A DNA stretch of 64,000 nucleotides from an uncultured Candidatus Saccharibacteria bacterium. GTDB taxonomy: Bacteria > Patescibacteriota > UBA1384 > 2-12-FULL-50-11. The position numbers and the translations under genes are program-made. Shown in pieces: positions 7,693 to 43,114 of the stretch (within the stretch, counting starts at the first letter, position 1; each line of letters opens with the position of its first letter). A model generated the notes under the pieces. It saw only the letters and a program-made list of their open reading frames with translations, was not told where the DNA came from and did no database searches. The stretch is taken from assembly GCA_964599405.1 (NCBI GenBank), contig CAZRED010000001.1, forward strand, positions 11,528-75,527, in the 5' to 3' direction.

Positions 7693-8838
7693 TTGGTCGA
7701 GATGATTTCTGAACTAATCAAGGAAGAGGAAAAACGTCAGTCCGAAACGATCAACCTAATTGCGTCGGAAAATTACGTCTCGGATGCCGTTCGCGGTGCC
7801 TTGGGCTCAGTTTTAACGAATAAATACGCCGAAGGCTACCCGGAAAAACGCTACTATAGCGGCACGAAAATTGTTGACCAAGTTGAGTTGGCGGTACAGG
7901 AATTAGCCCGGAAAGTTTTCCAAACCGACTACCACGTTAATGTCCAGCCGTACTCCGGCTCCGTCGCCAATTTGGCAATTTATTTATCGTTCATGCAACC
8001 CGGCGACCCGATTATGTCGCTGGACTTGGCCCACGGCGGGCATCTGAGCCACGGCCACAAAGTGAATTTTGTCGGCAAACTCTTTGACCGTTACGCCTAC
8101 TTTGTTGATGCCGATACCCACCTACTCAACTACGAAGAGATTGAAGAAGAAGCTAAAGAAGTAAAACCCAAAATTATCGTCTCCGGCGCCTCCGCCTATT
8201 CGCGCCAAATTGATTTTAAGAGGATTTCCCAAATCGCTCACAACGTCGGGACGCGGCATCTGGCGGACATATCTCATATCTCCGGACTGGTCGCAACGGG
8301 TTTGCACCCAACGCCTTTCGGTAATGCTGACTACGTAATGACCACCACCCACAAGATTCTGCGCGGGCCACGGGGCGCGCTGATTTTTGGCAAACCGGAG
8401 TTTGCCAAAGAAATTGATAAAACGGTTTTTCCGGGGCTGCAAGGCGGGCCACATATGCACACCATTGCCGCTATCGGCGTTTGCCTGGAAGAGGCACTGC
8501 TGCCCAGTTATAAACAATACTGCCAACAGGTTGTTATTAATGCCCAGCTCCTGGCCGCCGAGCTGCAGAAGCTCGGCGTAAGCATTATCACGAGCGGCAC
8601 CGACAACCACCTTTTCTTGATTGACTTGCGCCCATTGAAAATTAGCGGTCAAGACGCCCAGGATCGGTTGGAAGCAGTTGGGGTTACGGTTAATAAAAAT
8701 GCTATTCCATACGACGAAGCGCCTCCACAGAACCCCTCCGGAATTAGGCTTGGCACACCAGCCATCACTACCCGCGGTATGACCGAAAAAGAAATGCCGG
8801 CGTTAGCACAAAAAATTGCCACGGCTTTGAATAAATAG
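7693..8838 (+). CDS. glyA: serine hydroxymethyltransferase
   Basis: LIASENYVS, PLP-lysine region TTTHKILRGPRGALI. Confidence 0.95.
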   Translation: MVEMISELIKEEEKRQSETINLIASENYVSDAVRGALGSVLTNKYAEGYPEKRYYSGTKIVDQVELAVQELARKVFQTDYHVNVQPYSGSVANLAIYLSFMQPGDPIMSLDLAHGGHLSHGHKVNFVGKLFDRYAYFVDADTHLLNYEEIEEEAKEVKPKIIVSGASAYSRQIDFKRISQIAHNVGTRHLADISHISGLVATGLHPTPFGNADYVMTTTHKILRGPRGALIFGKPEFAKEIDKTVFPGLQGGPHMHTIAAIGVCLEEALLPSYKQYCQQVVINAQLLAAELQKLGVSIITSGTDNHLFLIDLRPLKISGQDAQDRLEAVGVTVNKNAIPYDEAPPQNPSGIRLGTPAITTRGMTEKEMPALAQKIATALNK

Positions 8839-8865
8839 TTTCCCCGCCAACCAGGTTGGGCTACA

Positions 8866-10626
8866 ATGGGTGGGTTGATGAAACAGGAAAACTACGAAAA
8901 TTCGCCGCTCTACAAACTGCGCCACACCGCTGCTCATGTTTTGGCGATGGCCGCTCGGGAGTTTGATCCGGAGGTAAAATTAGCGATCGGGCCGCCAATT
9001 GAAACCGGGTTTTACTACGATTTTCAGTTTTCCCGCCCAGTTTCCGACTCTGACTTAGAAAAACTGGAAAAATCGATGGTAAAAATCATCGCCAAAGATA
9101 TTCCGGTGGTGAAAAAAACGATGTCGCACGCTGAGGCCGTTAAACTGTTGAAAAAAGAACAGCAGCCCTACAAGTTAGAGTTAGCCGAAGAGCTAAAAGA
9201 CGAGGAATTGAGTTTCTACGGCATCGACACTTTCTGGGATCTCTGCAAGGGACCGCACGTTGAATCTACGAGTGAAATAAAGGCCTTTAAACTACTCTCT
9301 GTTGCCGGAGCCTACTGGCGCGGCGACGAGCATCAGCCGATGCTGACTCGTATCTACGGAACGGCCTTTGCCAGCCAAAAAGCCCTGGATGAACATTTGG
9401 TAGCACTGGAAGAAGCCAAAAAGCGGGATCATCGCAAACTTGGCAAAGAGCTGGGAATTTTTATGATCTCCCCAGAGATTGGTAGCGGTTTGCCGCTCTG
9501 GCTGCCTAAAGGTGCCACGCTTTACCGCTTGCTGCGGGAATATTTAACGAAGCTGGAAGTTGAAGCCGGCTATCAACACGTGATTACCAGCGAATTGGGT
9601 AAAAAAGAACTTTACGAAAAGTCTGGCCACCTCTCCCACTACGCCGACAGTATGTATCCGCCGCTGGATCTAGACGGCGAAACATTTTACTTGCGGCCAA
9701 TGAACTGCCCGCATCACATCGCCATTTTCTCCCATGAGCTACACTCCTACCGCGACCTACCGATTCGTATTGCCGAGTTCGGTGAGGTGTTCCGTTTGGA
9801 AAAATCCGGCGAACTCTCCGGCTTACAGAGGGTACGCAGCTTCACCATTAACGACGCCCACATTTTCTGCCGGGAAGATCAGATCAAACAAGAGTTCCGA
9901 CAAGTGGTGGAGATGGTACAGTTTGTTTATAAAAGTCTCGACCTTAATGATTGGTGGTTCCGCCTGTCGCTCCACGATCCAGCTAACAAGAAAAAATACT
10001 CCGACAATATTCTACTGTGGGAAAAGTCGGAAAAAATATTGCGGGAAACGCTGGTGGAAATGAACGTTGACTTTACGGAAGCTAAAGACGAAGCAGCCTA
10101 TTACGGACCAAAACTCGATATCCAGATGAAAAACGTTAACGGTAAAGAAGAAACCATTGCCACTGTTCAACTGGATTTTTACCTGCCAAAACAGTTCGGG
10201 ATTGAGTATATCGACGAGAAAGGCCAAAAACAGCAACCAGTAATGATTCATCGAGCGATTTTTGGCTCGATGGAGCGCTTTATTGGCTTTTATTTGGAGA
10301 AAACCGGTGGAGAATTCCCGCTCTGGCTCTCGCCGATACAAGTGCGAATCTTGCCGATTTCCGAAAAAACCTCAAAGTACGCCGCCGATGTAAAGTGCGA
10401 ATTAACAACGGCTGGTTTCCGAGCCGAAGTTGACGAAAGTGCCGAAACTCTAGGTAAACGGATTCGCCAAGCAGAGTTGGAAAAAATCCCGCTGACATTA
10501 ATCCTCGGTGAAAAAGAAATGGCCGGTAAAACCGTGACGGTCCGGGTTCGCCATACTGCCGATCAAGCAACGCTCAAACTGGCCGATTTCGTTTCGAGCT
10601 ATCTTGCTGGAGCTCTGAAGAGCTAA
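8866..10626 (+). CDS. thrS: threonine--tRNA ligase
   Basis: Class II aaRS motifs, HTAAHVLAMA editing/second domain, anticodon-binding C-terminus. Confidence 0.95.
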   Translation: MGGLMKQENYENSPLYKLRHTAAHVLAMAAREFDPEVKLAIGPPIETGFYYDFQFSRPVSDSDLEKLEKSMVKIIAKDIPVVKKTMSHAEAVKLLKKEQQPYKLELAEELKDEELSFYGIDTFWDLCKGPHVESTSEIKAFKLLSVAGAYWRGDEHQPMLTRIYGTAFASQKALDEHLVALEEAKKRDHRKLGKELGIFMISPEIGSGLPLWLPKGATLYRLLREYLTKLEVEAGYQHVITSELGKKELYEKSGHLSHYADSMYPPLDLDGETFYLRPMNCPHHIAIFSHELHSYRDLPIRIAEFGEVFRLEKSGELSGLQRVRSFTINDAHIFCREDQIKQEFRQVVEMVQFVYKSLDLNDWWFRLSLHDPANKKKYSDNILLWEKSEKILRETLVEMNVDFTEAKDEAAYYGPKLDIQMKNVNGKEETIATVQLDFYLPKQFGIEYIDEKGQKQQPVMIHRAIFGSMERFIGFYLEKTGGEFPLWLSPIQVRILPISEKTSKYAADVKCELTTAGFRAEVDESAETLGKRIRQAELEKIPLTLILGEKEMAGKTVTVRVRHTADQATLKLADFVSSYLAGALKS

Positions 10627-11371
10627 CGACGTTTTTCAGCAACAGTAAGACTGTCAGTGGCCCGACGGCACCGCGCTTTGGCGTAATTAATTTAACCGCT
10701 TTTTCGACTGACTCGAAGTCCACATCAACCCCGGAAGCGTCGACAACCGTCATGTTTTCGGTAACAAAATCGGCCGTGACTAATTTTTCTACGCCGGTAG
10801 CAGTAATTAAAATATCGAAAGTTTTAATTTTTGCGGTTTCGTTTTCAGCCTTGCTGACAATCTGTTCATAGGGCCAGCTGTTGCGCTGAAACATTTCTGC
10901 CAACGGCTTACCAACCAATCGGCCAGCGCCTAAAATTACTGTATTGGATTTTTTTAAATTCAGGCCGTTACGCTCCAGCAGCATCACAATGCCGGTAGGT
11001 GTGGGAGGGGGAAAATTTTCCGAAATTAGCCCGTCGACATCTTTACTTGGCTCTATTTGCGAGAGAATTCGCTCGGTCTTAACATTTTTTGGCAGCGGTA
11101 GCTGCACAACAATTCCATCAATTTTTTTGTTTTCGTTCAAGCTGGCAATTAACGCTGATAGCTGGCGTTCGGCGGCGCGTTCGAAATGGTGGAGCTGGAA
11201 TTCAATCCCCAGCTCCAGTGCTTTTTTCTGTTTGGCACGGACAAACTTTTCCGTTTGTTTGTCGTTACCCACCCAAATCAACGACAGTTGTGGTGCGCGC
11301 TCCAAATTCTGGCGCGTTAGCAGAATTTCTTCTGTTAGCACGTCTAGTGCTTCCGTTGCGGACAGCAACAT
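10574..11371 (-). CDS. folD: bifunctional methylenetetrahydrofolate dehydrogenase/cyclohydrolase
   Basis: VGNDKQTEKFVRAKQK...DGIVVQLPLPKNV...ILGAGRLVGKPLA; 3' end overlaps thrS 3' end by 53 nt on the opposite strand. Confidence 0.85.
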   Translation of the reverse strand: MLLSATEALDVLTEEILLTRQNLERAPQLSLIWVGNDKQTEKFVRAKQKKALELGIEFQLHHFERAAERQLSALIASLNENKKIDGIVVQLPLPKNVKTERILSQIEPSKDVDGLISENFPPPTPTGIVMLLERNGLNLKKSNTVILGAGRLVGKPLAEMFQRNSWPYEQIVSKAENETAKIKTFDILITATGVEKLVTADFVTENMTVVDASGVDVDFESVEKAVKLITPKRGAVGPLTVLLLLKNVVSSSELQQDSSKRNRPV

Positions 11372-12012
11372 CAGCTAGTTGGAGTAAGCTCGGCAAGTTT
11401 GCGGTTGATAATTTCCTGCCACTGATCCATGGACTGTGCCCCAACGATTCGCTCACCGTTGACAAAAAAGGTTGGGGTTGATGAAACTCCGACGCGATCA
11501 GCTTCAGCCTTGTCTCGCCCGATGGCATCAGCCACGGCGGACGAACCGTAATCGTTGCCGAATTTATCCACGTCCATGCCTAATGATTGGGCATAGGCAA
11601 CAAATTGCGCTTTCGGATCGGCCAAACCACTCCACGTTTCCTGTTCAGCAAATAGAATATCGTACATCTCCCAAAATTTGCCTTGTAATCCCGCTGCTTC
11701 TGCCGCTTGGGCAGATTCGTCGGCATTCGGATGGATTGGCAATGGAATGTGGCGGTAAATTAACTGAACGTTTTGTTTGTTATTCTCAAAGCTTTGTTTT
11801 AGGGGCGCCGCGGCCGCTCGACAGGCCGGGCACTGGAAATCGCCGAATTCAACAATTTTAATTGGAGCCTCGTCGCTACCAAGTTTTTGACCAACTGTTG
11901 TATCAATTGTTGCGTTACCGTCAGAAGATTTGCCGCCAAAGACGACAAAACCAACCACTGCCAAAATCGCTACTGCAATCACTCCAACGAAAAACTTTCC
12001 GTCACCGCTCAT
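11371..12012 (-). CDS. DsbA-family thiol:disulfide oxidoreductase (membrane-anchored)
   Basis: N-terminal TM; thioredoxin-fold active site FGDFQCPACR; stop overlaps folD start by 1 nt. Confidence 0.8.
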   Translation of the reverse strand: MSGDGKFFVGVIAVAILAVVGFVVFGGKSSDGNATIDTTVGQKLGSDEAPIKIVEFGDFQCPACRAAAAPLKQSFENNKQNVQLIYRHIPLPIHPNADESAQAAEAAGLQGKFWEMYDILFAEQETWSGLADPKAQFVAYAQSLGMDVDKFGNDYGSSAVADAIGRDKAEADRVGVSSTPTFFVNGERIVGAQSMDQWQEIINRKLAELTPTS

Positions 12013-12424
12013 ATTGAACTCCTTTCAAGTTAGGTAAAAATAGCAAAATTATGGTGATTGTGACAATCGTCAGTGAAACCAAACACCAGGTGCAGTAGGC
12101 GTGGATGAAGAAAACTTCGGCGGCTAGTAGATACAGGCTGAAGGCCAAGCCCAACATTGCCCAGATACGCAGCTCTTTGATTCCAAACCGCTTTCGGAAA
12201 ACAATCATGTATAGCAACCCTAATTGAATAATGTACCAGGCAATCCCGTAAATCGAGACAGGGATGCCAAAGAAATAGGCGTATTTACTGGAAAGGACAG
12301 TTTCGCAGCCACCACCAATTGAGCAAGCCACCGAACTGGGGTCGTAGGTTTTGAAAGTTAAATATATTGATACCGCCAAGCCTAGTGCTGCAAGAATAGT
12401 CAGTATCCGGCCGGAGTTGTTCAT
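12002..12424 (-). CDS. vitamin K epoxide reductase (VKOR) family protein
   Basis: 4-5 TM helices, CSIGGGCETV and HAYCTWC motifs typical of bacterial VKOR; overlaps dsbA-like start by 11 nt. Confidence 0.75.
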   Translation of the reverse strand: MNNSGRILTILAALGLAVSIYLTFKTYDPSSVACSIGGGCETVLSSKYAYFFGIPVSIYGIAWYIIQLGLLYMIVFRKRFGIKELRIWAMLGLAFSLYLLAAEVFFIHAYCTWCLVSLTIVTITIILLFLPNLKGVQYER

Positions 12425-12544
12425 CGGTTTTACTCTATCATCCTTGTTAGCGATAAAAAAGGATGAAGCGAAGCTATCACCGGTTGCCTTCCGATGCGAG
12501 GGGTGGCATAAATGATATAAGCAATGAATCGTTTATAAGACTAA

Positions 12545-13222
12545 ATGAGACTAAACAAATTTATTGCGGCTTCTGGTTTCTGCTCCCGCCGCAAAGCCGA
12601 CGAACTGATTGCTGCCGGTCAGGTGAAAATTAATGGCCAATCCGTTACGACACTTGCTACAATTGTCGACCCCAAAACTGACGAAGTAACCATCAACGGC
12701 CAGAAAATTTCTCACGAAGAAAAAAAAGTTCTGTATTTGCTGAATAAGCCGCGCGGTGTTGTCACTACTGCCGACGATCCGGAAGGACGCAAAACAGTCT
12801 TGGATTTCGTGCCGACGGAGCCGCGAGTTTTCCCATGTGGGCGATTGGACGTGGAGACAATGGGTTTGGTAGTTTTAACCAACGACGGCAACCTCTGCTA
12901 CCAACTAACCCATCCGAAATTCGAGCACAAAAAGGAGTACTTTGTTCAGGGCGTTAGCCGCAACCCGCAGTTCTCTTGGGAGAAGTTACAAAAACCGCGC
13001 ATTCGGGTTGGTTTCGGCCAAGTGGCGATTGACGATCGGAAACTGAAGAAAATGTTTGAGAAAAAAATTGATTTTTGGCTAACCGTGCACGAAGGGAAGT
13101 ACCACATTGTCCGTAAACTCTGCAGTTCGGTTGGTATTGATGTCGTTCACCTTACCCGCACCAAGCTTGGCCAGTACGAACTGGGCGATATCGAGCCAGG
13201 ACACTACCAAGAAGTTTTGTAA
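12545..13222 (+). CDS. S4-domain pseudouridine synthase (RsuA/RluB family)
   Basis: N-terminal S4 domain (MRLNKFIAASGFCSRRKADELIAAGQVKING), catalytic GRLD motif (CGRLDVETMGLVVLTNDG). Confidence 0.85.
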   Translation: MRLNKFIAASGFCSRRKADELIAAGQVKINGQSVTTLATIVDPKTDEVTINGQKISHEEKKVLYLLNKPRGVVTTADDPEGRKTVLDFVPTEPRVFPCGRLDVETMGLVVLTNDGNLCYQLTHPKFEHKKEYFVQGVSRNPQFSWEKLQKPRIRVGFGQVAIDDRKLKKMFEKKIDFWLTVHEGKYHIVRKLCSSVGIDVVHLTRTKLGQYELGDIEPGHYQEVL

Positions 13223-20501: not shown

Positions 20502-21437
20502 TTGGCCCCGGTTGAGCGGTATTTTCAGAAAATATCTGTCCGTACCAACCACTTGGCCAATGCGATAATCGTTTCGCCCCAATATAAGCGGGGGATGCGG
20601 TTCTTCAAGCGGTACTCCACCCAAACTAGCTTTGGGTTTGTGATTGCCGTCTTTTTGACGGTGACTGTCGGCGAAGGCCAAGCCTTTATTGTCTCCACCC
20701 CCACCGTGGCTGCCCAACTGGAAAGCCAAAACGACGGCTTTGTTAGTAAGCCGCAACTTTTTGCCGGCCAAACCATTTTAACTGGTGAGGTACAGCAATC
20801 GGCGGCGATTATTTATACGGTGGAAACCGGTGACAATTTGGTGGCGATTGCCGCTCGTTATAATATTAGCGTCGGTTCGATATTGGATGCTAACGACATT
20901 GAGCCAATTAAAGCTGAAACGATTCGCCCGGGTACTGATTTAATTATTCCGGCTGAAGATACGAATACTTCGCTCGCCTGGCTGGATTCAATCAATAAAG
21001 CCAAAGCCGAGCAAGCCCGCTTAGCGGAAGCAGCCCGCCTGCGCGATCTGGCCCGCTCGCGCACCACTTCTACCCGTGTCACTAACATCGGTGGCCATAC
21101 CATTCTTGGTACGATGCGCGGCGGTTACAACGGTGGCTACCCAGGACAGTGCACTTGGTACGCTAACTACAAACGTTCCGACCTGCCAAATGGCATGGGT
21201 AACGGTGGCCAATACGTAGCCAGTGCTCGAAAGTTTGGATTACCAACTGGCACCACCCCCCGTGTCGGTTCGCTAGTGGTTACTAACGAAGCGGCCTACT
21301 ACGGCCACGTTGCTTACGTTGAATCAGTCAGCGGCAGCTCTATCACGATAACTGAGATGAACTACGTCGGCCCGTACGTCGTCAGCCGCCGAACAATTTC
21401 GATCAACTCTCCAGCCATCAAAGGCTACGTTTACTAA
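20502..21437 (+). CDS. membrane-anchored LysM + CHAP domain peptidoglycan hydrolase
   Basis: Signal anchor, LysM (YTVETGDNLVAIAARYNISVGSILDAND), C-terminal CHAP (GQCTWYA...GHVAYVESV); alternative start at 20595. Confidence 0.75.
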   Translation: MAPVERYFQKISVRTNHLANAIIVSPQYKRGMRFFKRYSTQTSFGFVIAVFLTVTVGEGQAFIVSTPTVAAQLESQNDGFVSKPQLFAGQTILTGEVQQSAAIIYTVETGDNLVAIAARYNISVGSILDANDIEPIKAETIRPGTDLIIPAEDTNTSLAWLDSINKAKAEQARLAEAARLRDLARSRTTSTRVTNIGGHTILGTMRGGYNGGYPGQCTWYANYKRSDLPNGMGNGGQYVASARKFGLPTGTTPRVGSLVVTNEAAYYGHVAYVESVSGSSITITEMNYVGPYVVSRRTISINSPAIKGYVY

Positions 21438-22024: not shown

Positions 22025-22735
22025 ATGAACACACTGCTTCTTATCTCCGCACTCTTCACCAGCCAAGCGGCCGGTGCCCAGACCCCACAGACGTTCCTCG
22101 AACGTTTCGACGATCAGGTTGGTATCCGTAATTCCGTTCAAGTGCTGCTAGAAGCAGCTTCAGCAAACGGGTGGACCGGCGTACGTGACGTTGCCACGAA
22201 AAGTGCCAATGTGCCAGGCCTGTCAGAAAGCGATCGGATCGGCGCCATGCTGGATCTGTTCGATGGGGTCAAGTACATGATCGGGTTCTCTAAGGAGAAT
22301 GAGGCTAAAGGAAAGTTCCCTATTGGCACAACCGCCAAAGAACTGATCGTCTCCGAATTACGTTACGGTCTCGACGACATTAAGAAAATCGTCGAGTCCC
22401 CCGATTACGAGAAGAACCTGAGAAGGGGGCCCAGCCAGCACCGGTTCTACGAATCCTTCAAGACATATGTCTCAATGGAGCCGGAAAACTCGCCGCCACA
22501 TATTATTGCCGTTCGCTTTCGGACGGTCCCACGTGCGGGAGATGTCATTCAGTTTTTCCTCTGTTTCAGAACGGTGGAAATTGACGGGCAAAAGAAATCG
22601 CGCCTGGAATTCATCGTCCCCGAAGTCCGTCTTTCCGTTACCCCGGCATCCGCCGGGGATTTTTTTATCTTTGCGCCCCGGGAGAGATTCGAACTCCCGA
22701 CCTTGACGATAGAAGCGTCCTGCTCTAACCGCTGA
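22025..22735 (+). CDS. secreted hypothetical protein (3' end runs through a terminator and into tRNA-Arg on the opposite strand)
   Basis: Signal peptide MNTLLLISALFTSQAAGAQT; no known domain. Confidence 0.45.
   Translation: MNTLLLISALFTSQAAGAQTPQTFLERFDDQVGIRNSVQVLLEAASANGWTGVRDVATKSANVPGLSESDRIGAMLDLFDGVKYMIGFSKENEAKGKFPIGTTAKELIVSELRYGLDDIKKIVESPDYEKNLRRGPSQHRFYESFKTYVSMEPENSPPHIIAVRFRTVPRAGDVIQFFLCFRTVEIDGQKKSRLEFIVPEVRLSVTPASAGDFFIFAPRERFELPTLTIEASCSNR
22641..22667 (+). terminator. rho-independent terminator
   Basis: CCCCGGC-ATCC-GCCGGGG followed by ATTTTTTTA. Confidence 0.7.
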
Positions 22736-22746
22736 GCTACCGGGGC
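22674..22746 (-). tRNA. tRNA-Arg (TCT)
   Basis: Reverse complement: acceptor GCCCCGG/CCGGGGC, anticodon stem GGACG/CGTCA loop CTTCTAT, T-loop AGTTCGAATCT; CCA not encoded. Confidence 0.8.
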
Positions 22747-22810
22747 AATTGAGCTGTATTTTACCCGAATTCTGGTTGCTAATACAGGGATATCGGCTAT
22801 ATTTTACCTT

Positions 22811-23379: not shown

Positions 23380-23406
23380 TGTTTTTACCCTAGAAAAGTA
23401 TATACT
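23380..23406 (+). promoter_or_regulatory. conserved promoter-like motif CCCTAGAAAAGTATATACTTTT (copy 1, upstream of deacetylase)
   Basis: Nearly identical motif recurs at 25559-25588 upstream of the small ORF/GT2; contains TATACT -10-like hexamer. Confidence 0.45.
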
Positions 23407-23413
23407 TTTTCTG

Positions 23414-25552
23414 ATGAAATTTTTGAAAGGTCTCCTGGCTGTTGTGCTGGCTGCTACGCCGCTTCTGACTATTGCACCGCAAACGGCATCGGCCCACGAA
23501 AACCTTATCCCTAATCCCTCCGTAGAAACTCCAGCAACTGGCGAAAATCGTCCGGAGAATTGGCAGCCCGGTTTTATTTGGGGTGAATTAAAGCCGTCGT
23601 TTTCATATGAAAACGACGGATTACAAGGCAATCGCTCGGTTAAAGTAGCTGTTAGTAACTACAGCTCCGGCGATGCTAAGTGGTACTTCGACCACGTTAA
23701 TGTTGCGCCAAACCAAGAATATACTTACAGTGATTACTACAAATCCGATGTTGGCACCGAGCTGGTCGCTGAAACTCTCGATTCAGCCGGTAGCGCCTCC
23801 TACCAGTGGCTATCCTGGACTAGCCCGAGCGACCAGTGGAAACCGGTCATTGTCGACTTCACTACCCCTTCTAACGCTGTGAAAGTCTCCGTTTTCCACC
23901 TATTACTTAGTAACGGCTACCTCCAAACTGACGCTTTTTCGCTAACTGACAAACACCCGCCAGGTGGCAACATTCTTAACCCTGGCCTTGAATCAGCCGA
24001 TCCGAACAATGCCAACCAGCCATTTGCCTGGAAAACCGGCTCCTGGGGTAATAATCAACCAACCTATACCTACCAAAACACTGGCTATCAATCCAATCGT
24101 AGTGGCAAGGTTAGTATTGCTAATTTCCAATCGGGCGATGCTAAGTGGTACTTCGAGCCAATTACCGTAGCACCAAGCACCAGCTACCTCTTCGAGGACT
24201 ACTACCGATCAGACATTCTAACCTCGGTAGTTGCCCGGGTTGAGTCAGCCAGTGGTGCTATCTCCTATCTGTGGCTTGGCGACGTAGCGGCTAGCGCAGT
24301 TTGGAAGCAAGCATCCCTACCGATTACGACACCTGCCGACATCAAACAGCTAACTGTTTTTCACCTGTTAGCTGGCAACGGCTATCTAGAAACTGATAGT
24401 TTCAGTTTTTCTGAAATTCAACAGGGGTTAGTGCCAAACCCATCATTTGAAACTGCCGATGCCGGCAACCCGAACATGCCTGCTCAATGGCAAACAAATA
24501 ACTGGGGTAATAACGTCGCCTCATTTGAATACTTAAACAACGGCCACACCGGCAATCACAGCGCCAAGGTTACAGTTAGTAATTACAGCTCCGGCGATGC
24601 TAAATGGTGGTACGAACCGACAGTAATCGAACCTGAAGAAGAATATGCTTTCTCTAATTTTTATCAATCAAATACCTCCACCCGAGTAGTCGTGTGGGTG
24701 GTCACTACTGGCGGCGTTAACCAGTACATCGGCCTGGGGAGTGCTCCAGCCAGCTCGACCTGGACGGAGTTTCACGATACCTTCACGATGCCCGTTAACG
24801 CTGCCCGTGCCGCAATACTCCATATTGTTGAGGGTAACGGTTTCTTAATAGTTGATGACTACTCGCTTGCAATCGGTGAAATTCAAGGATTCAACCGCGG
24901 CCTCGTCACACTAACCTTCGACGACGGCTGGGAAGCCAACGTTTCCACTGCCCTACCAATTATGCAGCAGTACGGCTTCCTCTCTACCCAATTCTACGCC
25001 ACCGGCTTTTTGAACGGCGAAGATTATCAGTCTCTAGCTAACGTTTGGAAATTTATTGACGCTGATCACGAGATTGGTTCGCACTCGGTTACCCACCCCG
25101 ATTTAACGACACTTTCACCAGAAGCACTAGACTATGAGCTGCGCGAATCAAGACGGTTCCTTGAAGATACGTTCGGCGTTAAAATAAAGAACTTCGCTTC
25201 ACCGTTTGGCGCTTACAACAATAATGTTATCCAGGCAATTCAAGGTTATTACGAATCACACCGGAGCGTTGACGTCGGTTACAACAGTAAAGACAACTAC
25301 GATCAGTGGCGTTTCAAGGTTCAGAACATGACTCCTACCACTACTTTGGCCGAATATCAGGCCTGGCTCCAACACGCCAAGAGCAAAAAATTATGGCTGA
25401 TTTTGGTTTATCACAAGGTTGAAAATAGTAATGTTGGCCCGTACGACAGCACGACGGACCAATTTGCTGCTCAAATGGCCGCGCTATCAACCAGCGCTAT
25501 AGTTGTTGCCACCATGCAGCAGGCGATCGAAGAGCTGACACCACAGCTCTAG
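23414..25552 (+). CDS. secreted polysaccharide deacetylase (CE4/NodB homology domain) with three N-terminal CBM4/9-like carbohydrate-binding repeats
   Basis: Signal peptide; three ~150-aa repeats each with NPSxE...W...SGDAKWY(F/Y)...Y; C-terminal TFDDGW, HSVTHPDL, FASPFG motifs of CE4. Confidence 0.8.
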   Translation: MKFLKGLLAVVLAATPLLTIAPQTASAHENLIPNPSVETPATGENRPENWQPGFIWGELKPSFSYENDGLQGNRSVKVAVSNYSSGDAKWYFDHVNVAPNQEYTYSDYYKSDVGTELVAETLDSAGSASYQWLSWTSPSDQWKPVIVDFTTPSNAVKVSVFHLLLSNGYLQTDAFSLTDKHPPGGNILNPGLESADPNNANQPFAWKTGSWGNNQPTYTYQNTGYQSNRSGKVSIANFQSGDAKWYFEPITVAPSTSYLFEDYYRSDILTSVVARVESASGAISYLWLGDVAASAVWKQASLPITTPADIKQLTVFHLLAGNGYLETDSFSFSEIQQGLVPNPSFETADAGNPNMPAQWQTNNWGNNVASFEYLNNGHTGNHSAKVTVSNYSSGDAKWWYEPTVIEPEEEYAFSNFYQSNTSTRVVVWVVTTGGVNQYIGLGSAPASSTWTEFHDTFTMPVNAARAAILHIVEGNGFLIVDDYSLAIGEIQGFNRGLVTLTFDDGWEANVSTALPIMQQYGFLSTQFYATGFLNGEDYQSLANVWKFIDADHEIGSHSVTHPDLTTLSPEALDYELRESRRFLEDTFGVKIKNFASPFGAYNNNVIQAIQGYYESHRSVDVGYNSKDNYDQWRFKVQNMTPTTTLAEYQAWLQHAKSKKLWLILVYHKVENSNVGPYDSTTDQFAAQMAALSTSAIVVATMQQAIEELTPQL
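23495..24866 (+). repeat. three tandem ~450-nt coding repeats (CBM-like modules) inside the deacetylase gene
   Basis: Protein repeats approx aa 28-180, 183-338, 339-485 share NPxxE(T/S)...NxSxKV(x)(V/I)xN(Y/F)xSGDAKW(Y/W)(F/Y). Confidence 0.75.
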
Positions 25553-25558
25553 CTTGTT

Positions 25559-25588
25559 GCATTTTCCCTTACAAAAGCATATACTATT
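25559..25588 (+). promoter_or_regulatory. conserved promoter-like motif CCCTTACAAAAGCATATACTATT (copy 2)
   Basis: Matches copy 1 over ~20 nt; followed by GGGGGG SD-like run and ATG 25621. Confidence 0.45.
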
Positions 25589-25620
25589 GTTCGTAAAAGC
25601 GGGGGGCTAGAAAGTAGCCA

Positions 25621-25740
25621 ATGTATACACTTCCAAAAGCTGGTCCAAGCACCTTCGTTCACTTAATTGCCCTAGTGGTTGCGACTGCTATTGTTTTCGG
25701 TAAATCCGCTTACAAAGCCGTAGTCAAAAGCGCTAAGTAA
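25621..25740 (+). CDS. 39-aa single-TM peptide between deacetylase and GT2 (not in ORF track)
   Basis: MYTLPKAGPSTFVHLIALVVATAIVFGKSAYKAVVKSAK; position matches small IcaD/PgaD-type subunits. Confidence 0.35.
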   Translation: MYTLPKAGPSTFVHLIALVVATAIVFGKSAYKAVVKSAK

Positions 25741-25760
25741 TTTGGCTACATTTTTATTTA

Positions 25761-26780
25761 ATGAATAAAACTACCATTGCGGTAGTGGTTCCTGCATACA
25801 ACGAAGAGAAAGTGATTGGCGCGTCTCTCGCTTCACTGCGCCGTTGTATTGATATGAAGCATGTTTACGTTGCTAGCGACGGTTCGACAGATACAACTGC
25901 CAGTATTGCCCGTAGCTATACTAAAAACGTCTTAAGCCTGCGGAAAAACCGCGGCAAGGCCGGAGCGCTTCAGGCCTTGATTAAAAAGTTCTCCCTCACA
26001 GAAAGCTATAAATACGTCTTCTTTTTTGACGCCGACACCAAGATTGATCGAAACTTTTTACCAGAAATTAAAAAAGTAGTTGCTGCACAGCGCCCCGCCT
26101 GTGTCGTCGGTACCGTTACCAGCACTAAAAACAAGTTAATCAGCGCTTTTCGGGTGTTTGAGTACGGTTTTTCTCATAAATTCTTTAAAAACGCCCAGAA
26201 TTTCATGGGAACTATCGTGATCGCCCCCGGTTGTGCTTCCGTTTACCGGGCGGATGTGTTGGCTAAGCTGGATTTTAGCCGTAGAACCCTAACGGAAGAC
26301 TTGGATTTCACCATTCAAATTCAAAAATACCGCTACGGCAAGGTTGTTTATTGTCCGCGAGCCCGAGTTCTTACCCAAGACCCAATGAGTTTTAGTGACT
26401 TTTGGAATCAAATCACTCGCTGGAATACCGGTTTTTGGCAAAACTTCTTTATCCATCGTCTTTACCAACCAAACCGCAAGCTAAACTTCGAAGTACTGCT
26501 GTTGCTAAGCGACTTCCTGCTTTGGGGTGGATTGCTAGTGTTTGCTCTGTTTGAACCAATCTACTTTTTAGAGCTGTATGCCACGTCTCTATTGATCTTA
26601 ACTGCCATCGCTAGCGGAACGATCGTTGCCGAGAAACAGTATTGGGCCCTGCCGTACGTGCCGTTGTTCAACTTTTTCCAGATCGTTAACACGGTTTCGT
26701 TTGTTTACTCCTTTTTCCGAGCAGTTATTGGCTCTGGCAAACAGTTGTCCTGGCAAAAAGTTTCTCGCTACGCCAACTAA
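25761..26780 (+). CDS. processive family-2 glycosyltransferase (IcaA/PgaC/NodC-like polysaccharide synthase)
   Basis: VVVPAYNEE, DGSTD, FFDADT, TED, QITRW (QxxRW) motifs; two C-terminal TM helices. Confidence 0.8.
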   Translation: MNKTTIAVVVPAYNEEKVIGASLASLRRCIDMKHVYVASDGSTDTTASIARSYTKNVLSLRKNRGKAGALQALIKKFSLTESYKYVFFFDADTKIDRNFLPEIKKVVAAQRPACVVGTVTSTKNKLISAFRVFEYGFSHKFFKNAQNFMGTIVIAPGCASVYRADVLAKLDFSRRTLTEDLDFTIQIQKYRYGKVVYCPRARVLTQDPMSFSDFWNQITRWNTGFWQNFFIHRLYQPNRKLNFEVLLLLSDFLLWGGLLVFALFEPIYFLELYATSLLILTAIASGTIVAEKQYWALPYVPLFNFFQIVNTVSFVYSFFRAVIGSGKQLSWQKVSRYAN

Positions 26781-26858
26781 TCGCTTGTCATATTGCCCGT
26801 GACAGGCAATAAGCAATCTACCGGTTGCTATCAAGAGCTCGCCTGGTAGTATCAAGCC

Positions 26859-28223
26859 ATGCGGCCGGGAGGGTTCACCCTTATCTTGCTAGTAATTGGC
26901 TTATGTTTTTCTGCCTTATTTTCGGTGTTTCCAGCTCAAGCAAAAACCCGGGTTGAGGTAAATATTTTTTTCCCCGGCGCAGCTTGGAATACCAATCTTC
27001 TGAATAACTTCCAAGCTGACTTGGGAATTAAGTTCACCGCCGCCAAGTGGTATATGGACTGGGCCACCGCTTTTGATACCGGCGTGGCTAACCGTTTGAA
27101 CAATAACGGCTACATCCCAGAAATGACTTGGGAGCCGTCGCTAAATAGCAACGGCGTATCCTACGACGACGTTGTTAACGGCATTTACGATCCCTACATT
27201 ATTCAAACCGCCCAGACTGTGAAGAACCTGGGCTTCCCAATTCGGATTGCGTTGGCGCCGGAGATGAACGCTACCTGGACGCCGTGGGGAGGGCTGTCCG
27301 GTAATAATCCTGATAATTTCAAAGCTTTTTGGCAGCACACTGTCCAAATTTTTGACAACCAGGGCGCCAACAACATTACTTGGATTTGGTCGCCGAACGT
27401 CATTCCTTACGGCCCAGAGAGAGTGGGGTCGTACGGGGAAATGTACCCAGGTAATAGCTACGTCGATTACATGGGGCTGGATGGCTATAACTGGGGCACC
27501 AGCCAACCATGGTCGGTTTGGCAGAGCTTCCGGGAGGTATTTTTAGACTCGTATAACGAACTCCTTGGAGTTTCCTCCAAAGATATTTTAATCATGGAGA
27601 TGGCTTCAACGGAGCTGGGCGGCAGCAAGGCGGCCTGGATTACCGATATGTACAACGAACTCCAAAACAGCTTCCCGCGTATCAAGGGCTTCACCTGGTT
27701 TCATATTAATAAAGAAACCGACTGGCGAATTGATTCCAGTGCTAGCGCCAAAGCCAGCTTTGCCGCCGGCTACCACGGTACTGCCGTCGTAACTGCACCA
27801 CCACCAAACACCGCTCCAGCTGGTACCACCAAAACCACCCAACCCAAATCTAACGGCACCGCCCCGGTTGTCGCTACTAATGAGTTGGTCCCAGAAGTGA
27901 CAAATGAACCCCAGCCGAGTCCAGCAGACTACGCCGTGACAACGCCGATTCGGCCAAAAATTGCCGGAACAATTTTAGTGGCAGAGCGAACGTCGATGCG
28001 TTCGCCGGAAAAGCTTCGCCTGCTCGGCGGTATTCTACTTGGCGGCTTAATCGTCGGCGGGTTATTTATTCGTCGGATGCTGTTAATTCATAGTTACGCC
28101 GTCGAGCCTATCCAACCGACTTCGCCCGTTGTGGTTGCGTTGCCAAAGAAACCTGCCGCAAAAAAGATGGACGGCGTTGGAAAAACCAAACCAAAAAAGA
28201 AGAAAAACCAGACGACCAAGTAG
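26859..28223 (+). CDS. membrane-anchored extracellular clan GH-A glycoside hydrolase (GH26-like)
   Basis: Signal peptide, PEMN (acid/base) and STELGG (nucleophile) motifs, YPGNSYVDYMGLDGYNW; Pro/Thr linker, C-terminal TM and Lys-rich tail. Confidence 0.65.
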   Translation: MRPGGFTLILLVIGLCFSALFSVFPAQAKTRVEVNIFFPGAAWNTNLLNNFQADLGIKFTAAKWYMDWATAFDTGVANRLNNNGYIPEMTWEPSLNSNGVSYDDVVNGIYDPYIIQTAQTVKNLGFPIRIALAPEMNATWTPWGGLSGNNPDNFKAFWQHTVQIFDNQGANNITWIWSPNVIPYGPERVGSYGEMYPGNSYVDYMGLDGYNWGTSQPWSVWQSFREVFLDSYNELLGVSSKDILIMEMASTELGGSKAAWITDMYNELQNSFPRIKGFTWFHINKETDWRIDSSASAKASFAAGYHGTAVVTAPPPNTAPAGTTKTTQPKSNGTAPVVATNELVPEVTNEPQPSPADYAVTTPIRPKIAGTILVAERTSMRSPEKLRLLGGILLGGLIVGGLFIRRMLLIHSYAVEPIQPTSPVVVALPKKPAAKKMDGVGKTKPKKKKNQTTK

Positions 28224-30230: not shown

Positions 30231-30613
30231 GGGCCTGACTGGCTTCGACGAGAACATTTACAACCAAATTGGCAAGCGGAAGTGGCCGGCCTTAGAGCCA
30301 CACCCAAATACGTGCAAACGCATTTGAAAAAGCAAAAGCTGGTATCGCTAACTTGTTTAGCGCGCCTACCTTTGCGCCAGCAGTAGCTTAAACACTCACT
30401 GCCGTTTTACTTGATGATTCTACTAATCGGGTAAAGCGCCATATTCGTAGATTGGCCGAGCTGTCCGTGATGCAGTTCGTGCTGAAAATACTTCACTGCT
30501 GTCGTTGGTATTCTGACTGTCTCAAGCCAACGATTTAAGATTTAGACAATCTATGCTTGTAGAAGATTTGGTTAGTAGGTTTTCGGACCCGAGTTCAATT
30601 CTCGGCAGGTCCA
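30231..30613 (+). ncRNA. ssrA: tmRNA (ssrA)
   Basis: 5' GGGCCUGACUGGCUUCGACGAG and 3' UUUCGGACCCGAGUUCAAUUCUCGGCAGGUCCA parallel E. coli GGGGCUGAUUCUGGAUUCGACGGG / UUUCGGACGCGGGUUCAACUCCCGCCAGCUCCA; ends pair; tag ORF GCT at 30347 to TAA at 30389-30391 encodes ANLFSAPTFAPAVA; resume context UAUC-GCU-AAC vs E. coli UAGUC-GCA-AAC; CCA not encoded. Confidence 0.85.
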
Positions 30614-30739
30614 CTTCTCGACTCGTTACACTCGCTCGAAGTAAACCACTTCGGACTCAAGCGGATGACGAATCGACAACTAACTAACAGCACGAGAAAC
30701 CCCGAGCAACGTCGAGGGGCTCTTGCTGTATGATTTTTT

Positions 30740-38731: not shown

Positions 38732-40249
38732 CTAGTTTTCGCTATCGCGCTTAATTCCCGATTCTACAGCGATCTTCTTGGTGACATTAAATACGGTAAA
38801 TGGTTTATTCATTAGTAGCCGGGTTTGCGAATCGATGGCCGGTACGGCTGAAAAGAAAATGCCGCTGATTGGCAAAATAATCGGTGCCAAAAGCCATTCT
38901 TTCACCATCGTCAATAGGTAAACCGACTGGCTGCCCGGACGCGGTGGAACTAGCAGGGTAGCCACTAACATATTGGCGATCATGCCGAGCCAAGCGGTGT
39001 AGAAAAACGTCCGGTAGACAATCGGAAAGCTGTAACCGGTGACCGAGTCGCGAAAGACCGGGTCAATAAGGATCGGCAACCAACCAATCAATAGCACGAA
39101 CGACTGGGTGGAAAGAGAGTAGTGCGACTCAAACAGGCGCAGGAACTGCAGCCACTTGTAGAAAAAGGGGATTTTACCGTTGCCGTAGGAGTGCTCAAAG
39201 ACAAACGGCACGTCCGAAACCCCCCAAAACCAGCGGCGACGCTGGAGATACTGCTCGCGAAAAGTATCAAGCAGATTGTCGCCCTGGACGGCATCCATGT
39301 AGACCGGCACGAAAATCGGCACGACGTGGTGATTACCATCAAACTTAAAGTACGACCGCCAATACTGGTGGCCATCCTCAACGATAGTAGTGACCGACCA
39401 AAAATCCGTTTCTACTAACGCTGCCAGGCTTTGAGCGTGAGCCGAGAAATTGCGCGAATAGTGCGGCCGCATCGCTTGGATGATCTGCCAAAAGCTTGAG
39501 CCCATGGCGGTTAGTTTCACTGGCAACGGAACCTTCCAGATGTTGTTGAAAAACATCGGGATCGGCTGGAAACTTTTGTGAACTGGATCGGGAGTGCGCA
39601 GATAATTCCAGGTGAGATTAGCAAAATAATCGCGGTCAACCCGGTTGTCAGCGTCCAGGGTGGTAACAATCACGTCTTCATACGGAATCACCTGCTTGTC
39701 GATATATTGCAGCGACTGCCGGCCGGCCCAGGTAATGTTTGGCCCTTTGCCGCGGACTTCGCCGGGAATATCGGTCGGGTGATAGGTGACTAAAAAGCCG
39801 CCGAAAGAATTAACGTACTCTTCTTCCAAAATTGGGCCGTATTTTGGCGCCAGCTCCTTGTCGCGCGCCTCGAACGCTACCACGACAATTAATTTGTTTT
39901 TCGGGTAGTTGCTTAAGTGAATAGCGTCCAGGGTGTGACGAATTATCGAAATATCCTCTTTGTAGCTGGGGACAATTGCTAGGTGGTAGAAACGGCTATG
40001 CTCGTCGGGAAATTCCTGACTCAAACGTGAAAACCAATCAATTTCCCGGGCTTGGCGGTAGCGTAAAAAACCCCCGACCAAAAAGTAGGTAATAATAAAC
40101 ACCCGGACTAACCAGTAAATGGCAAATAGCAGCACAATCAGCGTCAACAGTTCGGGATTAACCACTGCCAGAGTGATTAAAAAAACAAAAGTTCCCCAGG
40201 TGGCCAAGCCCGGAATAATTTCCCACAACCGCACTAAAGAAGGCTTCAT
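38732..40249 (-). CDS. polytopic membrane family-2 glycosyltransferase, processive synthase type
   Basis: TLDADNRVD (DxD) and LQRRRW (QxxRW) motifs, multiple N- and C-terminal TM helices. Confidence 0.75.
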   Translation of the reverse strand: MKPSLVRLWEIIPGLATWGTFVFLITLAVVNPELLTLIVLLFAIYWLVRVFIITYFLVGGFLRYRQAREIDWFSRLSQEFPDEHSRFYHLAIVPSYKEDISIIRHTLDAIHLSNYPKNKLIVVVAFEARDKELAPKYGPILEEEYVNSFGGFLVTYHPTDIPGEVRGKGPNITWAGRQSLQYIDKQVIPYEDVIVTTLDADNRVDRDYFANLTWNYLRTPDPVHKSFQPIPMFFNNIWKVPLPVKLTAMGSSFWQIIQAMRPHYSRNFSAHAQSLAALVETDFWSVTTIVEDGHQYWRSYFKFDGNHHVVPIFVPVYMDAVQGDNLLDTFREQYLQRRRWFWGVSDVPFVFEHSYGNGKIPFFYKWLQFLRLFESHYSLSTQSFVLLIGWLPILIDPVFRDSVTGYSFPIVYRTFFYTAWLGMIANMLVATLLVPPRPGSQSVYLLTMVKEWLLAPIILPISGIFFSAVPAIDSQTRLLMNKPFTVFNVTKKIAVESGIKRDSEN

Positions 40250-41056: not shown

Positions 41057-43114
41057 TCAATTACTTTGAAAATATTTTTGTAAGCGACGGCCGCGGATAA
41101 TTAGGGCGCCGGCCAGCAGACCGGCGGCAAACACCAGGCTGTCAGGCAATGACTGATTACTTTGGACACCGGCTACTTTTGTGGAGTCGGTAACTTTTGT
41201 CGCATCAATAGGACGCGACGCGCTCGGAACAGCTGAAGCGACTGGAGCGACATTGCTCGAGCTAACCGATGTACCGCCAGACGATTTAGCGCTTGTGGTT
41301 TTGGCAACGGTTTCAGTTTCTTCGTCCGTTTTTGGCGCGGCCGTAATTAATTTGGCCGTGCCGCCGGCAAACCACGCCTCTACTTGGTCGGTCGAAGAGT
41401 TATCGTCAACCACTGTTCGAACTAAAATGACGTCGCCATTTTGGAATTGGGTTTTTATCCCGTCGAAATGCAGTTTGATCGATCCACTAGAATCGGTGAG
41501 CGTACCGGAGTCGGTGGCCAGTGCAGAAAGGCTGCCGCGCACCAGCGCTGTTTGGCCACGACGATTTTTTGCTTGGGTAATAGCATATTCTTTATCAGTT
41601 ACCGCCGCCGGCGCACCTACAATTATCGTGTTAGCGGCGTCCAGCAGGATTCGCCCAACGGCGCTAGAGCTAATTTTGCCGATGGCCGAAGCGGTCGAAA
41701 AAGTTGTTAACGAATACTCGCCTTTGGATTGGCTTAAAAATAGTTGGATGCCGGCCAAGCCTTCTTCCAAGTAAACTATCTCATCGCCAGCCAGGCCTGG
41801 TAAAACTGTCACGGTTCCCTCTACTTCCACGGCAGTGTTCTCCGGCAAGGCTCGGGCTTCGCCGATGGTCACCAAATGGGTAGCAGCCGTGGGCATAGTA
41901 ACGCGCTGCCAGCTGCGATAGTCGGCAGAGCGATAAACATTCGGGTTGTTTGAAGAATTGCGCAGCACCAGCAGCAAGCCTTGTGGCGTGTCAGCAAAGG
42001 TTTTAATGCGCGAGCTGACCGCCCAGGAGCTGTCCATTTCGCTAAACACCCCGGGGACGCCTTCGTAGAAAGCGCCGCTGCCTTCCGGTAAGTAGGCAAT
42101 TAACCCACTCGCTGAAGAATGTAGCTGATACGTCCCCGTAAGATTGGTTTCAGTCCAGCTGGTAAACGATTTCGAATAGTAAACTTTTGACGCAGTCTGC
42201 AGTATGACTTTTTTATTCTCGTCGGTGCTGTGTAGTACCCCTGGCTCGGGCAAGGCCGCAATTTCCACGTTGGATAGCCGCCAAGCTACTTCAAAAAGCC
42301 CAGTCGCTTTGCGGTAAAAAAGTCGGTCCCCAACTACTTCCAGGGTATCGCCGGGTTGCCAGTCGGAAAATGTGAGGGCGGTGAGCGCTCCGTCATAAAG
42401 ATAAAAATCGCTAGTGGCGCTGGACTGCCACAGCCGCAGCTGCTCGCTGCCGGAGAGATAGTTAACGGCGTTTAATATTTCTACAAACGCCCCGTTTTGG
42501 TAGCGCCAGACAGTATTGTCGCACTGGATTAGTAGCTCCGGCGTTCGGTACTGGGCAGCGGTAGCGCAGCTAAGGCTCCAGCGCGGCGAGGTGGTGGACG
42601 AGCTCAAAAGGTATATGTCAATGCGGCCGTTAGCGATGACGGAAAAAATAACCCCGAGATTTGTTTGGGCAAAGTATTCTTGCGGGTTGGCATAGGGATG
42701 ACTTGGCAAGTTAAAGACGGTTTGGCCAGTACCAGTGAAAAGAACGGCTTGGTCGGTGGTTGCCCCAATTAGCACATTATCAAGCCGCGCCAGGGCGATT
42801 GGTTGCTGGCTGGAAAAACGATCAACAAATCGCAAACCGTCCACAGACGAAATAATTCGGTAGTCGTTGATGCCTATTTCGACGACGTAATAAATTGTGT
42901 CAGCCAACTTTTCGGCAGCACTCACTAATGACTGTTGATGAACCGAGCGCTGCCAAATACCGGGAATGGTTCGGTAGCGAAAAAGTGCTAAATCATCGTC
43001 GACAACTGTGTTGCTGTTAAGGCTGAAAATTGACGAGGCAAAGGCACTGGATAAGGGCAGGAGTAGTAAGGCAACAAGAACGGGGAGTAACTTAAGGAAG
43101 TTTTTTGTCTTCAT
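41057..43114 (-). CDS. large secreted surface protein with C-terminal sorting-signal-like anchor
   Basis: Signal peptide; C-terminus LPDSL + hydrophobic stretch + RGRR. Confidence 0.55.
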   Translation of the reverse strand: MKTKNFLKLLPVLVALLLLPLSSAFASSIFSLNSNTVVDDDLALFRYRTIPGIWQRSVHQQSLVSAAEKLADTIYYVVEIGINDYRIISSVDGLRFVDRFSSQQPIALARLDNVLIGATTDQAVLFTGTGQTVFNLPSHPYANPQEYFAQTNLGVIFSVIANGRIDIYLLSSSTTSPRWSLSCATAAQYRTPELLIQCDNTVWRYQNGAFVEILNAVNYLSGSEQLRLWQSSATSDFYLYDGALTALTFSDWQPGDTLEVVGDRLFYRKATGLFEVAWRLSNVEIAALPEPGVLHSTDENKKVILQTASKVYYSKSFTSWTETNLTGTYQLHSSASGLIAYLPEGSGAFYEGVPGVFSEMDSSWAVSSRIKTFADTPQGLLLVLRNSSNNPNVYRSADYRSWQRVTMPTAATHLVTIGEARALPENTAVEVEGTVTVLPGLAGDEIVYLEEGLAGIQLFLSQSKGEYSLTTFSTASAIGKISSSAVGRILLDAANTIIVGAPAAVTDKEYAITQAKNRRGQTALVRGSLSALATDSGTLTDSSGSIKLHFDGIKTQFQNGDVILVRTVVDDNSSTDQVEAWFAGGTAKLITAAPKTDEETETVAKTTSAKSSGGTSVSSSNVAPVASAVPSASRPIDATKVTDSTKVAGVQSNQSLPDSLVFAAGLLAGALIIRGRRLQKYFQSN

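Follow-up and report, generated by a model that had tools for sequence, protein, structure and literature searches.

A candidate porin-less polysaccharide synthase module with a conserved micro-protein and a GH26 hydrolase in a Saccharibacteria genome

What might a small-genome bacterium build with four consecutive genes for a secreted deacetylase, a membrane peptide of 39 amino acids (aa), a minimal glycosyltransferase and a membrane-tethered glycoside hydrolase? The question is raised by a locus of an uncultured Candidatus Saccharibacteria bacterium (GenBank assembly GCA_964599405.1, contig CAZRED010000001.1), lying within a stretch of 64,000 nucleotides (positions 11,528 to 75,527 of the forward strand) that is here called the window and is numbered from its own first letter. 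It is probable, in our view, that the four genes at 23414-28223 work together in this monoderm bacterium of small genome as a synthase-dependent, porin-less polysaccharide module, with a partly deacetylated N-acetylhexosamine polymer as the favoured product; the identity of the polymer is put forward with less confidence than the general mechanism. Patescibacteria, the group also known as the candidate phyla radiation (CPR), are mostly uncultured epibionts whose surface chemistry is almost unknown; a conserved and compact polymer-making module is a concrete lead, open to testing, on what they may use for adhesion or as a matrix. Three things stand out: a conserved micro-protein that accompanies a minimal synthase, an unusual hydrolase partner and the candidate surface polymer itself.

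In the list of open reading frames (ORFs) of the window, all four genes lie on the + strand (Table 1), with intergenic gaps, from 5' to 3', of 68, 20 and 78 bp. A preliminary description, made from the letters of the window, had recognised here four co-oriented genes for a secreted CE4 deacetylase with three CBM-like modules, a 39-aa transmembrane (TM) peptide, a minimal glycosyltransferase family 2 (GT2) enzyme with DxD, TED and QxxRW motifs and only two C-terminal TM helices, and a membrane-tethered GH26-like hydrolase. The results below bear out the gene arrangement and each of these assignments, with a qualification that concerns the helices of the GT2.

At the centre of the proposal stands the 339-aa GT2, which opens directly with its GT-A domain and has no N-terminal TM helix. 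The motifs that characterise membrane-integrated processive GT2 synthases can be read in its sequence (DGSTD at 40, DAD at 90, TED at 178 and QITRW at 217), and an alignment shows D40, D90xD92, T178-E-D180, Q217xxR220W221 and a C-terminal W331...R336-Y337 to be invariant across 31 relatives. From its place at the end of the protein, the W331...RY segment may occupy the gating-loop position of such synthases. Pfam assigns the protein to PF00535, PF13641 and PF13632 (E 1e-22 to 5e-15) and to Chitin_synth_2, and Chitin_synth matches recur throughout the family. The best curated family is PgaC/IcaA (TIGR03937) at 86.3 bits, far under the equivalog cut-off of 422.3, followed by the XrtG-associated GT2 (51 bits), NodC (about 32) and CelA (about 31).

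The predicted structure (AF2, pLDDT 88.8) has interface helices, a TM hairpin and a third long helix, in the packing of the synthase fold. Foldseek ranks the Chlorella virus hyaluronan synthase first (E 3e-15, TMq 0.80), then vertebrate hyaluronan synthases (HAS), chitin synthases and BcsA, and it is because of this ranking that the modelled protein is placed structurally among the membrane-integrated synthases, albeit as a truncated member. The two strongly hydrophobic helices of the preliminary description are there (aa 240-264 and 266-290), but a third, long and weakly hydrophobic helix (aa 294-323) and the interface helices have to be added to them. A dolichol- or undecaprenyl-phosphate sugar transferase was rejected as an identity for the protein, since TED and QxxRW are present and the fold ranking places such enzymes far below; assignment to a non-processive family, which the preliminary description had named as contrary to its proposal, did not result from the domain searches.

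Other searches were less specific. The alignment profile of the GT2 family gave weak partial matches to solved structures of BcsA (1e-9), HAS1 (5.5e-8) and Chs1 (4e-4) that do not discriminate among these families, and tblastn against plasmids returned generically named GT2s together with one 'bifunctional polysaccharide deacetylase/GT2', a result that does not resolve sugar specificity. When metagenome contigs were scanned with the single GT2, one 1.2-kb contig matched; when genome contigs were scanned with the family profile, the matches listed, to a generic GT2 pattern, were mostly distant GT2s, and CE4-GT2 fusions were revealed.

The slight membrane part of the protein, just a TM hairpin and one weakly hydrophobic helix, and a Pfam Glyco_transf_21 match (23.5 bits, over its cut-off of 21.7) could also be taken to mean that the GT2 exports no polymer and, in the manner of PcManGT or GT21, transfers a single sugar or a small number of them to an acceptor that is a lipid or is linked to one (a glycolipid or cell-wall precursor, for instance). 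The peptide would then be a membrane partner, and the secreted neighbours would act on the surface glycoconjugate so formed or on another substrate. PcManGT of Pyrobaculum (PDB 6yv7) is a minimal cellulose-synthase-like GT2 that works in N-glycan assembly and not in polymer export, and no CE4, GH26 or micro-protein is known to us as its partner; the family profile of the window GT2 resembles its sequence only over the first 90 residues (E 7.8e-6). We consider this explanation improbable, as TED, QxxRW and the putative gating-loop residues W..RY are invariant, as HAS and BcsA outscore PcManGT in the fold comparison and leave DPMS, GtrB and ArnC far behind, and as the genetic association with an endo-type GH26 and a deacetylase that bears CBMs speaks for a substrate that is polymeric and extracellular.

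The 39-aa micro-protein is encoded immediately 5' of the GT2. A similar peptide of the same length, starting with (L/F)xxxGPSxxxH, is found directly upstream of the GT2 in L001/L002, L003/L004, L005, L086 and L087 (labels of this kind denote loci of relatives), and a GPSxxxH peptide lies 1.4 kb from the GT2 in L085; tblastn gave 53% identity over 32 aa to L001/L002. The GT2s of the peptide-bearing loci are only 45-59% identical to that of the window. Since conserved peptides of the same length, position and motif adjoin GT2s that have diverged to this extent, the small ORF is real, and a chance ORF was ruled out on the same layout and motif. Of all the partners of the GT2 it is in fact this micro-protein whose linkage is the most constant, including at loci where the CE4 or the GH26 gene is not adjacent. 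No Pfam or NCBIfam family was found for it, nor any detectable similarity to IcaD or PgaD, the small subunits that each have two TM helices as against the single one here; by sequence and family it is not one of them. It is proposed as a small subunit of the synthase, and by the positive-inside rule its N-terminus would lie outside and its C-terminus inside the cell.

The two accessory enzymes both carry predicted signal peptides. In the deacetylase, PF01522 covers aa 495-609 (E 1.9e-23, 83.2 bits against a cut-off of 23.1), and the Asp-Asp and His-x-x-x-His motifs of CE4 can be read intact as TFDDG at aa 501 and HSVTH at aa 557, so that the domain is a CE4 member by score and motif alike. Its relatives in the PDB are CE4 esterases, including chitin, peptidoglycan and xylan deacetylases. 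The IcaB (TIGR03933) and PgaB (TIGR03938) models score only 24.9 and 16.2 bits, against cut-offs of 248 and 322. The three N-terminal repeats are 38-44% identical to one another over about 147 aa and are modelled as all-beta (AF2, pLDDT 91.2), with the CBM22-1-CBM22-2 tandem of a xylanase (4xup, E 2.4e-13) as the best specific Foldseek match. Pfam CBM_4_9 (PF02018) reaches 22.9 and 23.1 bits (E 1e-4) on repeats 1 and 3, just under its cut-off of 25.9, and has no match on repeat 2; precomputed PF02018 matches are present on many full-length homologues. The CBM-CE4 architecture is widespread, with 684 matches that include actinomycetes at about 43% identity.

The fourth gene encodes a true GH26 enzyme. 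PF02156 matches at E 1.9e-12 (47.6 bits against a cut-off of 20.2), and phmmer against solved structures finds the GH26 module CtLic26A of Clostridium thermocellum CelH (2bv9, 2cip, 2v3g) at E 4.5e-50, with GH26 mannanases reaching only about 1e-7. Identity to CtLic26A is 42.6% over 251 positions, and E135 and E247 align with its catalytic E109 and E222, the two glutamates of clan GH-A. The product is therefore a glycosidase, a point on which the preliminary description had staked its interpretation, and the identity to a lichenase suggests a gluco-configured -1 subsite. An arrangement of signal peptide, linker and C-terminal TM anchor is predicted for it, and signal peptide and anchor are kept in 50 of 59 close homologues; from this conserved layout it follows that the GH26 would be displayed on the producer's own membrane.

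The recurrence of these genes together supports treating them as one module. Of 54 GT2 relatives on contigs of at least 5 kb, 26 share a contig with a GH26 relative, 12 of these shared contigs being shorter than 12 kb, and at least five contigs have relatives of GT2, GH26 and CE4 together. Sharing was judged indirectly, by an identical longest-contig size across three homologue tables, and the CE4 side is a lower bound, as it covers the best 120 of 684 CE4 homologues. The arrangements seen in individual relatives are given in Table 1. Outside the CPR, a CE4 gene stands directly before the nearest GT2s in dozens of loci, including those of Acidobacteria, Sphingomonas and Gemmatimonadota, and CE4-GT2 fusions are the nearest non-CPR relatives of the window GT2. 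In a verrucomicrobial locus (L048, 5772-9068) and in Novosphingobium (L054, 5733-9182) a single protein of about 1100 aa joins a GH18-like domain, a CE4 and a GT2; a GH26-like gene follows the fusion in the former. To our knowledge this three-domain fusion has not been characterised. Rhodococcus sp. WS4 (L012, 5964-13587) has a GT2 relative, 35% identical, that is flanked by a GlmS paralogue on one side and, at some distance on the other, by an NAD-dependent epimerase; a CE4 whose C-terminal module is CBM-like is nearby, and the whole suggests an amino-sugar polymer cluster. Independent genes with unrelated neighbours in homologous genomes, the outcome that the preliminary description had named as contrary to its proposal, are thus not what was found; the genes recur together and CE4 and GT2 are even fused in other phyla.

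Further genes were noticed at several loci of relatives. The GT2-GH26 pair of L086 is immediately followed (8729-12248) by two ORFs that together make up a UDP-glucose dehydrogenase, by a chitin-synthase-like GT2 of 449 aa and by a CE4 of 180 aa; this could be a cluster for a hyaluronan- or glucuronate-containing polymer. In L091 (2973-11808), labelled Verrucomicrobiae and of CPR-like content, a GH16 gene stands beside a 451-aa GT2 and a 1114-aa CBM-Big_7-CE4 protein beside a 423-aa GT2, with two sortases between the pairs. L001 is the closest complete relative; there, a Big_7-domain surface protein of 1009 aa (9978-13007) is encoded after the GH26 and before MacB ABC genes.

Taken as one pathway, the four products would work as follows. 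The cytoplasmic GT-A domain would polymerise a UDP-sugar, most likely UDP-GlcNAc or another UDP-N-acetylhexosamine, and the chain would pass outward through a membrane assembly of the TM hairpin and interface helices of the GT2 and the micro-protein, probably with more copies of both. Once the chain is outside, the secreted CE4 would bind to it through its three CBM-like modules and strip some of the acetyl groups, and the GH26, standing at the membrane on its Pro/Thr linker, would cut the beta-linked chain, possibly at deacetylated stretches, and so release, size or clear the polymer. An N-acetylhexosamine polymer is favoured because of the CE4 partnership and fusions, the GH18-like domain, the GlmS of Rhodococcus, the sequence affinity to PgaC and chitin synthases, and the HAS-like fold.

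A number of observations weigh against this interpretation. The module is not invariant: the order of four genes is not conserved, the CE4 gene moves or flips, GH26 is present in roughly half of the relatives and is missing from L003 and L087, and no CE4 gene is adjacent in L001 and L085. A CBM-CE4 gene in Dactylosporangium has no GT2 neighbour, and a GH26 relative stands alone on a Berkelbacteria contig (L093). The nearest characterised relative of the GH26, CtLic26A, is a beta-1,3-1,4-glucanase, and we know of no GH26 activity on polymers of GlcNAc or GlcN such as poly-N-acetylglucosamine (PNAG) or chitin. Moreover, the CBM-like modules resemble CBM22 and CBM4/9, whose typical ligands are xylan or beta-glucans.

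The solitary CBM-CE4 and GH26 genes, together with a CHAP-LysM wall hydrolase 2 kb upstream of the module, might be thought to indicate that there is no shared pathway at all, and that the CBM-CE4 and the GH26 are scavenging or host-attack enzymes with which an epibiont acts on host or environmental glycans, the GT2 having an unrelated envelope function. This we regard as very improbable, given that the linkage survives rearrangements and crosses phyla, including CE4-GT2 fusions in a single polypeptide, and given that tethering of the GH26 to the producer's membrane in the great majority of homologues fits a nascent, self-made chain better than foraging.

The lichenase-type GH26, with both catalytic glutamates kept, and the CBM22-like modules point instead toward a beta-glucan. 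The product could then be a mixed-linkage beta-1,3-1,4- or a beta-1,4-glucan made from UDP-glucose, with the GH26 as a lichenase-type trimmer like BcsZ and the CE4 acting on O-acetyl groups or elsewhere, for example on peptidoglycan. The GT2 has TED as in BcsA and PgaC, as against the GEDR motif of chitin, hyaluronan and NodC synthases; a GH16 gene adjoins a GT2 in L091; and bacterial GT2 mixed-linkage glucan synthases do exist (PMC10374906). Even so, a beta-glucan product seems to us unlikely, in view of the CE4 partner, whose conservation spans phyla and extends to fusion with the GT2 and a GH18-like domain, the GlmS adjoining the Rhodococcus relative, the lead of PgaC/IcaA over CelA among curated families, and the Chitin_synth matches that recur across the family. 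For the favoured N-acetylhexosamine polymer, a reconciliation may be that the GH26 would cut glucosamine-rich, deacetylated stretches; in some GH8 and GH5 enzymes chitosanase is combined with beta-glucanase activity.

How does the module compare with known systems? The preliminary description had called it an analogue of the IcaADBC system of staphylococci and the PgaABCD system of E. coli, and the logic of synthase, small subunit, deacetylase and hydrolase that underlies this name stands up, while membership does not, every curated Pga or Ica model being far under its cut-off. The systems have in common a GT2 with D, DxD, TED and QxxRW, a small membrane partner (IcaD, PgaD), an extracytoplasmic CE4 and an associated hydrolase activity, which in PgaB resides in the C-terminal domain. 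In contrast to PgaC and IcaA, however, the window GT2 is without N-terminal TM helices and about 70-100 aa shorter; the deacetylase, unlike IcaB and PgaB, carries three CBM-like modules; the hydrolase is GH26 and not GH153; and there is no IcaC, PgaA or porin. With the models far under their cut-offs, the peptide unrelated and the hydrolase of a different family, the module is an analogue and not a member of Ica/Pga, and equivalog membership was rejected on the scores.

The closest characterised monoderm counterpart is Streptomyces MatAB, in which MatB, a fusion of CE4 and GT2, makes PNAG, and which also depends on a small protein whose fold is unknown (PMC5972031). Like the window module, it is monoderm and porin-less, places a CE4 outside the cell and a GT2 inside it, and includes a small protein. 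In architecture, the window module differs in that its CE4 and GT2 are encoded separately, the CE4 being a soluble, predicted secreted protein with CBM-like repeats, and in that a GH26 is added; the related fusions of about 1100 aa differ from MatB in carrying also a GH18-like domain. Compared with the class I hyaluronan synthase of Chlorella virus (CvHAS; PDB 7sp8, 8snc) and with chitin synthases, the window GT2 has 18-19% identity, lacks the N-terminal TM helices and ends just past the third C-terminal helix, and therefore has about half of the membrane helices of the CvHAS type; those that are missing may be supplied in trans. CtLic26A is matched over its whole catalytic domain (PDB 2bv9, 2cip), yet it is a secreted cellulosomal degrader of plant glucans, whereas the window GH26 is predicted to be membrane-anchored and is genetically tied to a synthase. 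BcsA-BcsZ, finally, differs in its PilZ/c-di-GMP module and BcsB, neither of which has a counterpart here, in having GH8 in place of GH26, and in that the window module includes a deacetylase.

A stripped-down GT2 with a conserved micro-protein would provide a minimal model for which membrane elements coupled synthesis and export need; the clear TM helices that can be counted for the predicted channel are two in the GT2 and one in the peptide. One may go further and suppose that this is the smallest known membrane-integrated processive synthase, its channel completed by the micro-protein and by oligomerisation, that the GH26 has a new substrate in a partly deacetylated N-acetylhexosamine polymer, and that the glycan is widespread in Patescibacteria, with a possible part in host attachment; we offer this bolder combination tentatively, and it is rather doubtful. 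Since a lichenase-type GH26 is genetically locked to a CE4-GT2 pair, the module could bring to light a mixed-linkage glucan system in bacteria or else a specificity new to GH26. From the GH18-like-CE4-GT2 fusions of Proteobacteria, Acidobacteria and Verrucomicrobia it would seem that this logic reaches far beyond the described Ica, Pga and Mat systems. Literature searches found no paper describing the module in Saccharibacteria or Patescibacteria, or GH26 in synthase operons; the nearest item is a GH26 noted in an Actinoplanes Wzx/Wzy cluster and called without characterised precedent by its authors (PMC13390465).

Table 1. Features of the module in window coordinates, and gene arrangement at the loci of relatives
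Feature	Position	Strand	Details
HD-domain protein, 188 aa	22811-23377	+	Pfam HD E 1.2e-8; 36 bp 5' of CE4 gene
CBM-CE4 deacetylase, 712 aa	23414-25552	+	
Deacetylase, predicted signal peptide	23414-23494	+	aa 1-27, end ...TASA-HE; hydrophobic segment aa 2-25; Sec-type
Deacetylase, three tandem beta-sandwich modules, CBM4/9/22 type	23495-24883	+	aa 28-182, 183-337, 338-490
Deacetylase, CE4 (NodB-homology) catalytic domain	24884-25552	+	C-terminal ~220 aa
Single-pass membrane micro-protein, 39 aa	25621-25740	+	MYTLPKAGPSTFVH N-terminal motif; TM aa 7-31; Lys-rich C-terminal tail
Minimal membrane-integrated GT2 synthase (predicted), 339 aa	25761-26780	+	GT-A domain aa 4-205; interface helix aa 211-231; TM hairpin aa 240-290; helix aa 294-323; C-terminal W331...R336-Y337
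Membrane-tethered GH26 glycoside hydrolase (predicted anchor), 454 aa	26859-28223	+	Signal peptide aa 1-28; catalytic ~aa 45-302 with E135, E247; Pro/Thr-rich linker; TM aa 385-411; Lys-rich tail
Relative L001			peptide - GT2 - GH26
Relative L003			HD - peptide - GT2; CE4 gene 6 kb off
Relative L005			CBM-CE4 (divergent) - peptide - GT2
Relative L011			GT2 - CBM-CE4
Relative L085			GH26, peptide, GT2 inside ~3.5 kb
Relative L086			CE4 (divergent) - peptide - GT2 - GH26
Relative L087			CE4 (divergent) - peptide - GT2
Relatives L088/89 (Woesebacteria)			CE4 - GT2, 3 bp apart

With regard to transcription, a scan of the region for promoters and terminators found no convincing terminator between any of the four genes, its counts being close to shuffle expectation, and no clear Shine-Dalgarno sequence was found in the sequences read upstream of the module genes. 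A promoter-like site at 22776-22803 precedes the HD gene, although such sites are no more numerous in the region than expected by chance. The HD gene, upstream of the module, is kept in synteny and may be where the transcription unit begins: a copy 73% identical to that of the window is found a short way 5' of the GT2 in L003/L004, and in L001/L002 an HD gene is again by the GT2 but on the opposite strand. Its product may be a regulator, for example a hydrolase of a nucleotide second messenger, or a mere neighbour.

The setting of the module is that of chromosomal housekeeping genes of a small-genome bacterium, and the taxon labels on homologues are Patescibacteria, Saccharimonadales or Saccharibacteria. 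Upstream lie BipA, a DEAD helicase, the CHAP-LysM hydrolase, VIT1 and the HD protein; downstream, the GH26 gene directly abuts the convergent MacB of a MacB/FtsX ABC pair, which is followed by a transfer-messenger RNA (tmRNA) gene; SecA, tRNA synthetases, a penicillin-binding protein (PBP) and scattered tRNAs are found elsewhere in the window. A LytR-CpsA-Psr family protein is encoded at 464-1837, and the LysM-CHAP hydrolase at 20502-21437. LytR-CpsA-Psr proteins link glycopolymers onto the cell wall, and these two envelope functions might be related to the fate of the polymer.

Among the remaining features, a 236-aa ORF at 22025-22735 has no Pfam match, overlaps an opposite-strand tRNA-Arg gene (22673-22746) and contains a strong terminator-like hairpin (22641-22658); it is probably shorter than listed, or no gene. 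Two large ORFs on the - strand, 38732-40249 (505 aa) and 41057-43114 (685 aa), match no Pfam family at E 1e-5. The tmRNA gene, just 3' of the convergent MacB/FtsX pair, spans 30231-30614 and encodes the tag peptide ANAFEKAKAGIANLFSAPTFAPAVA.

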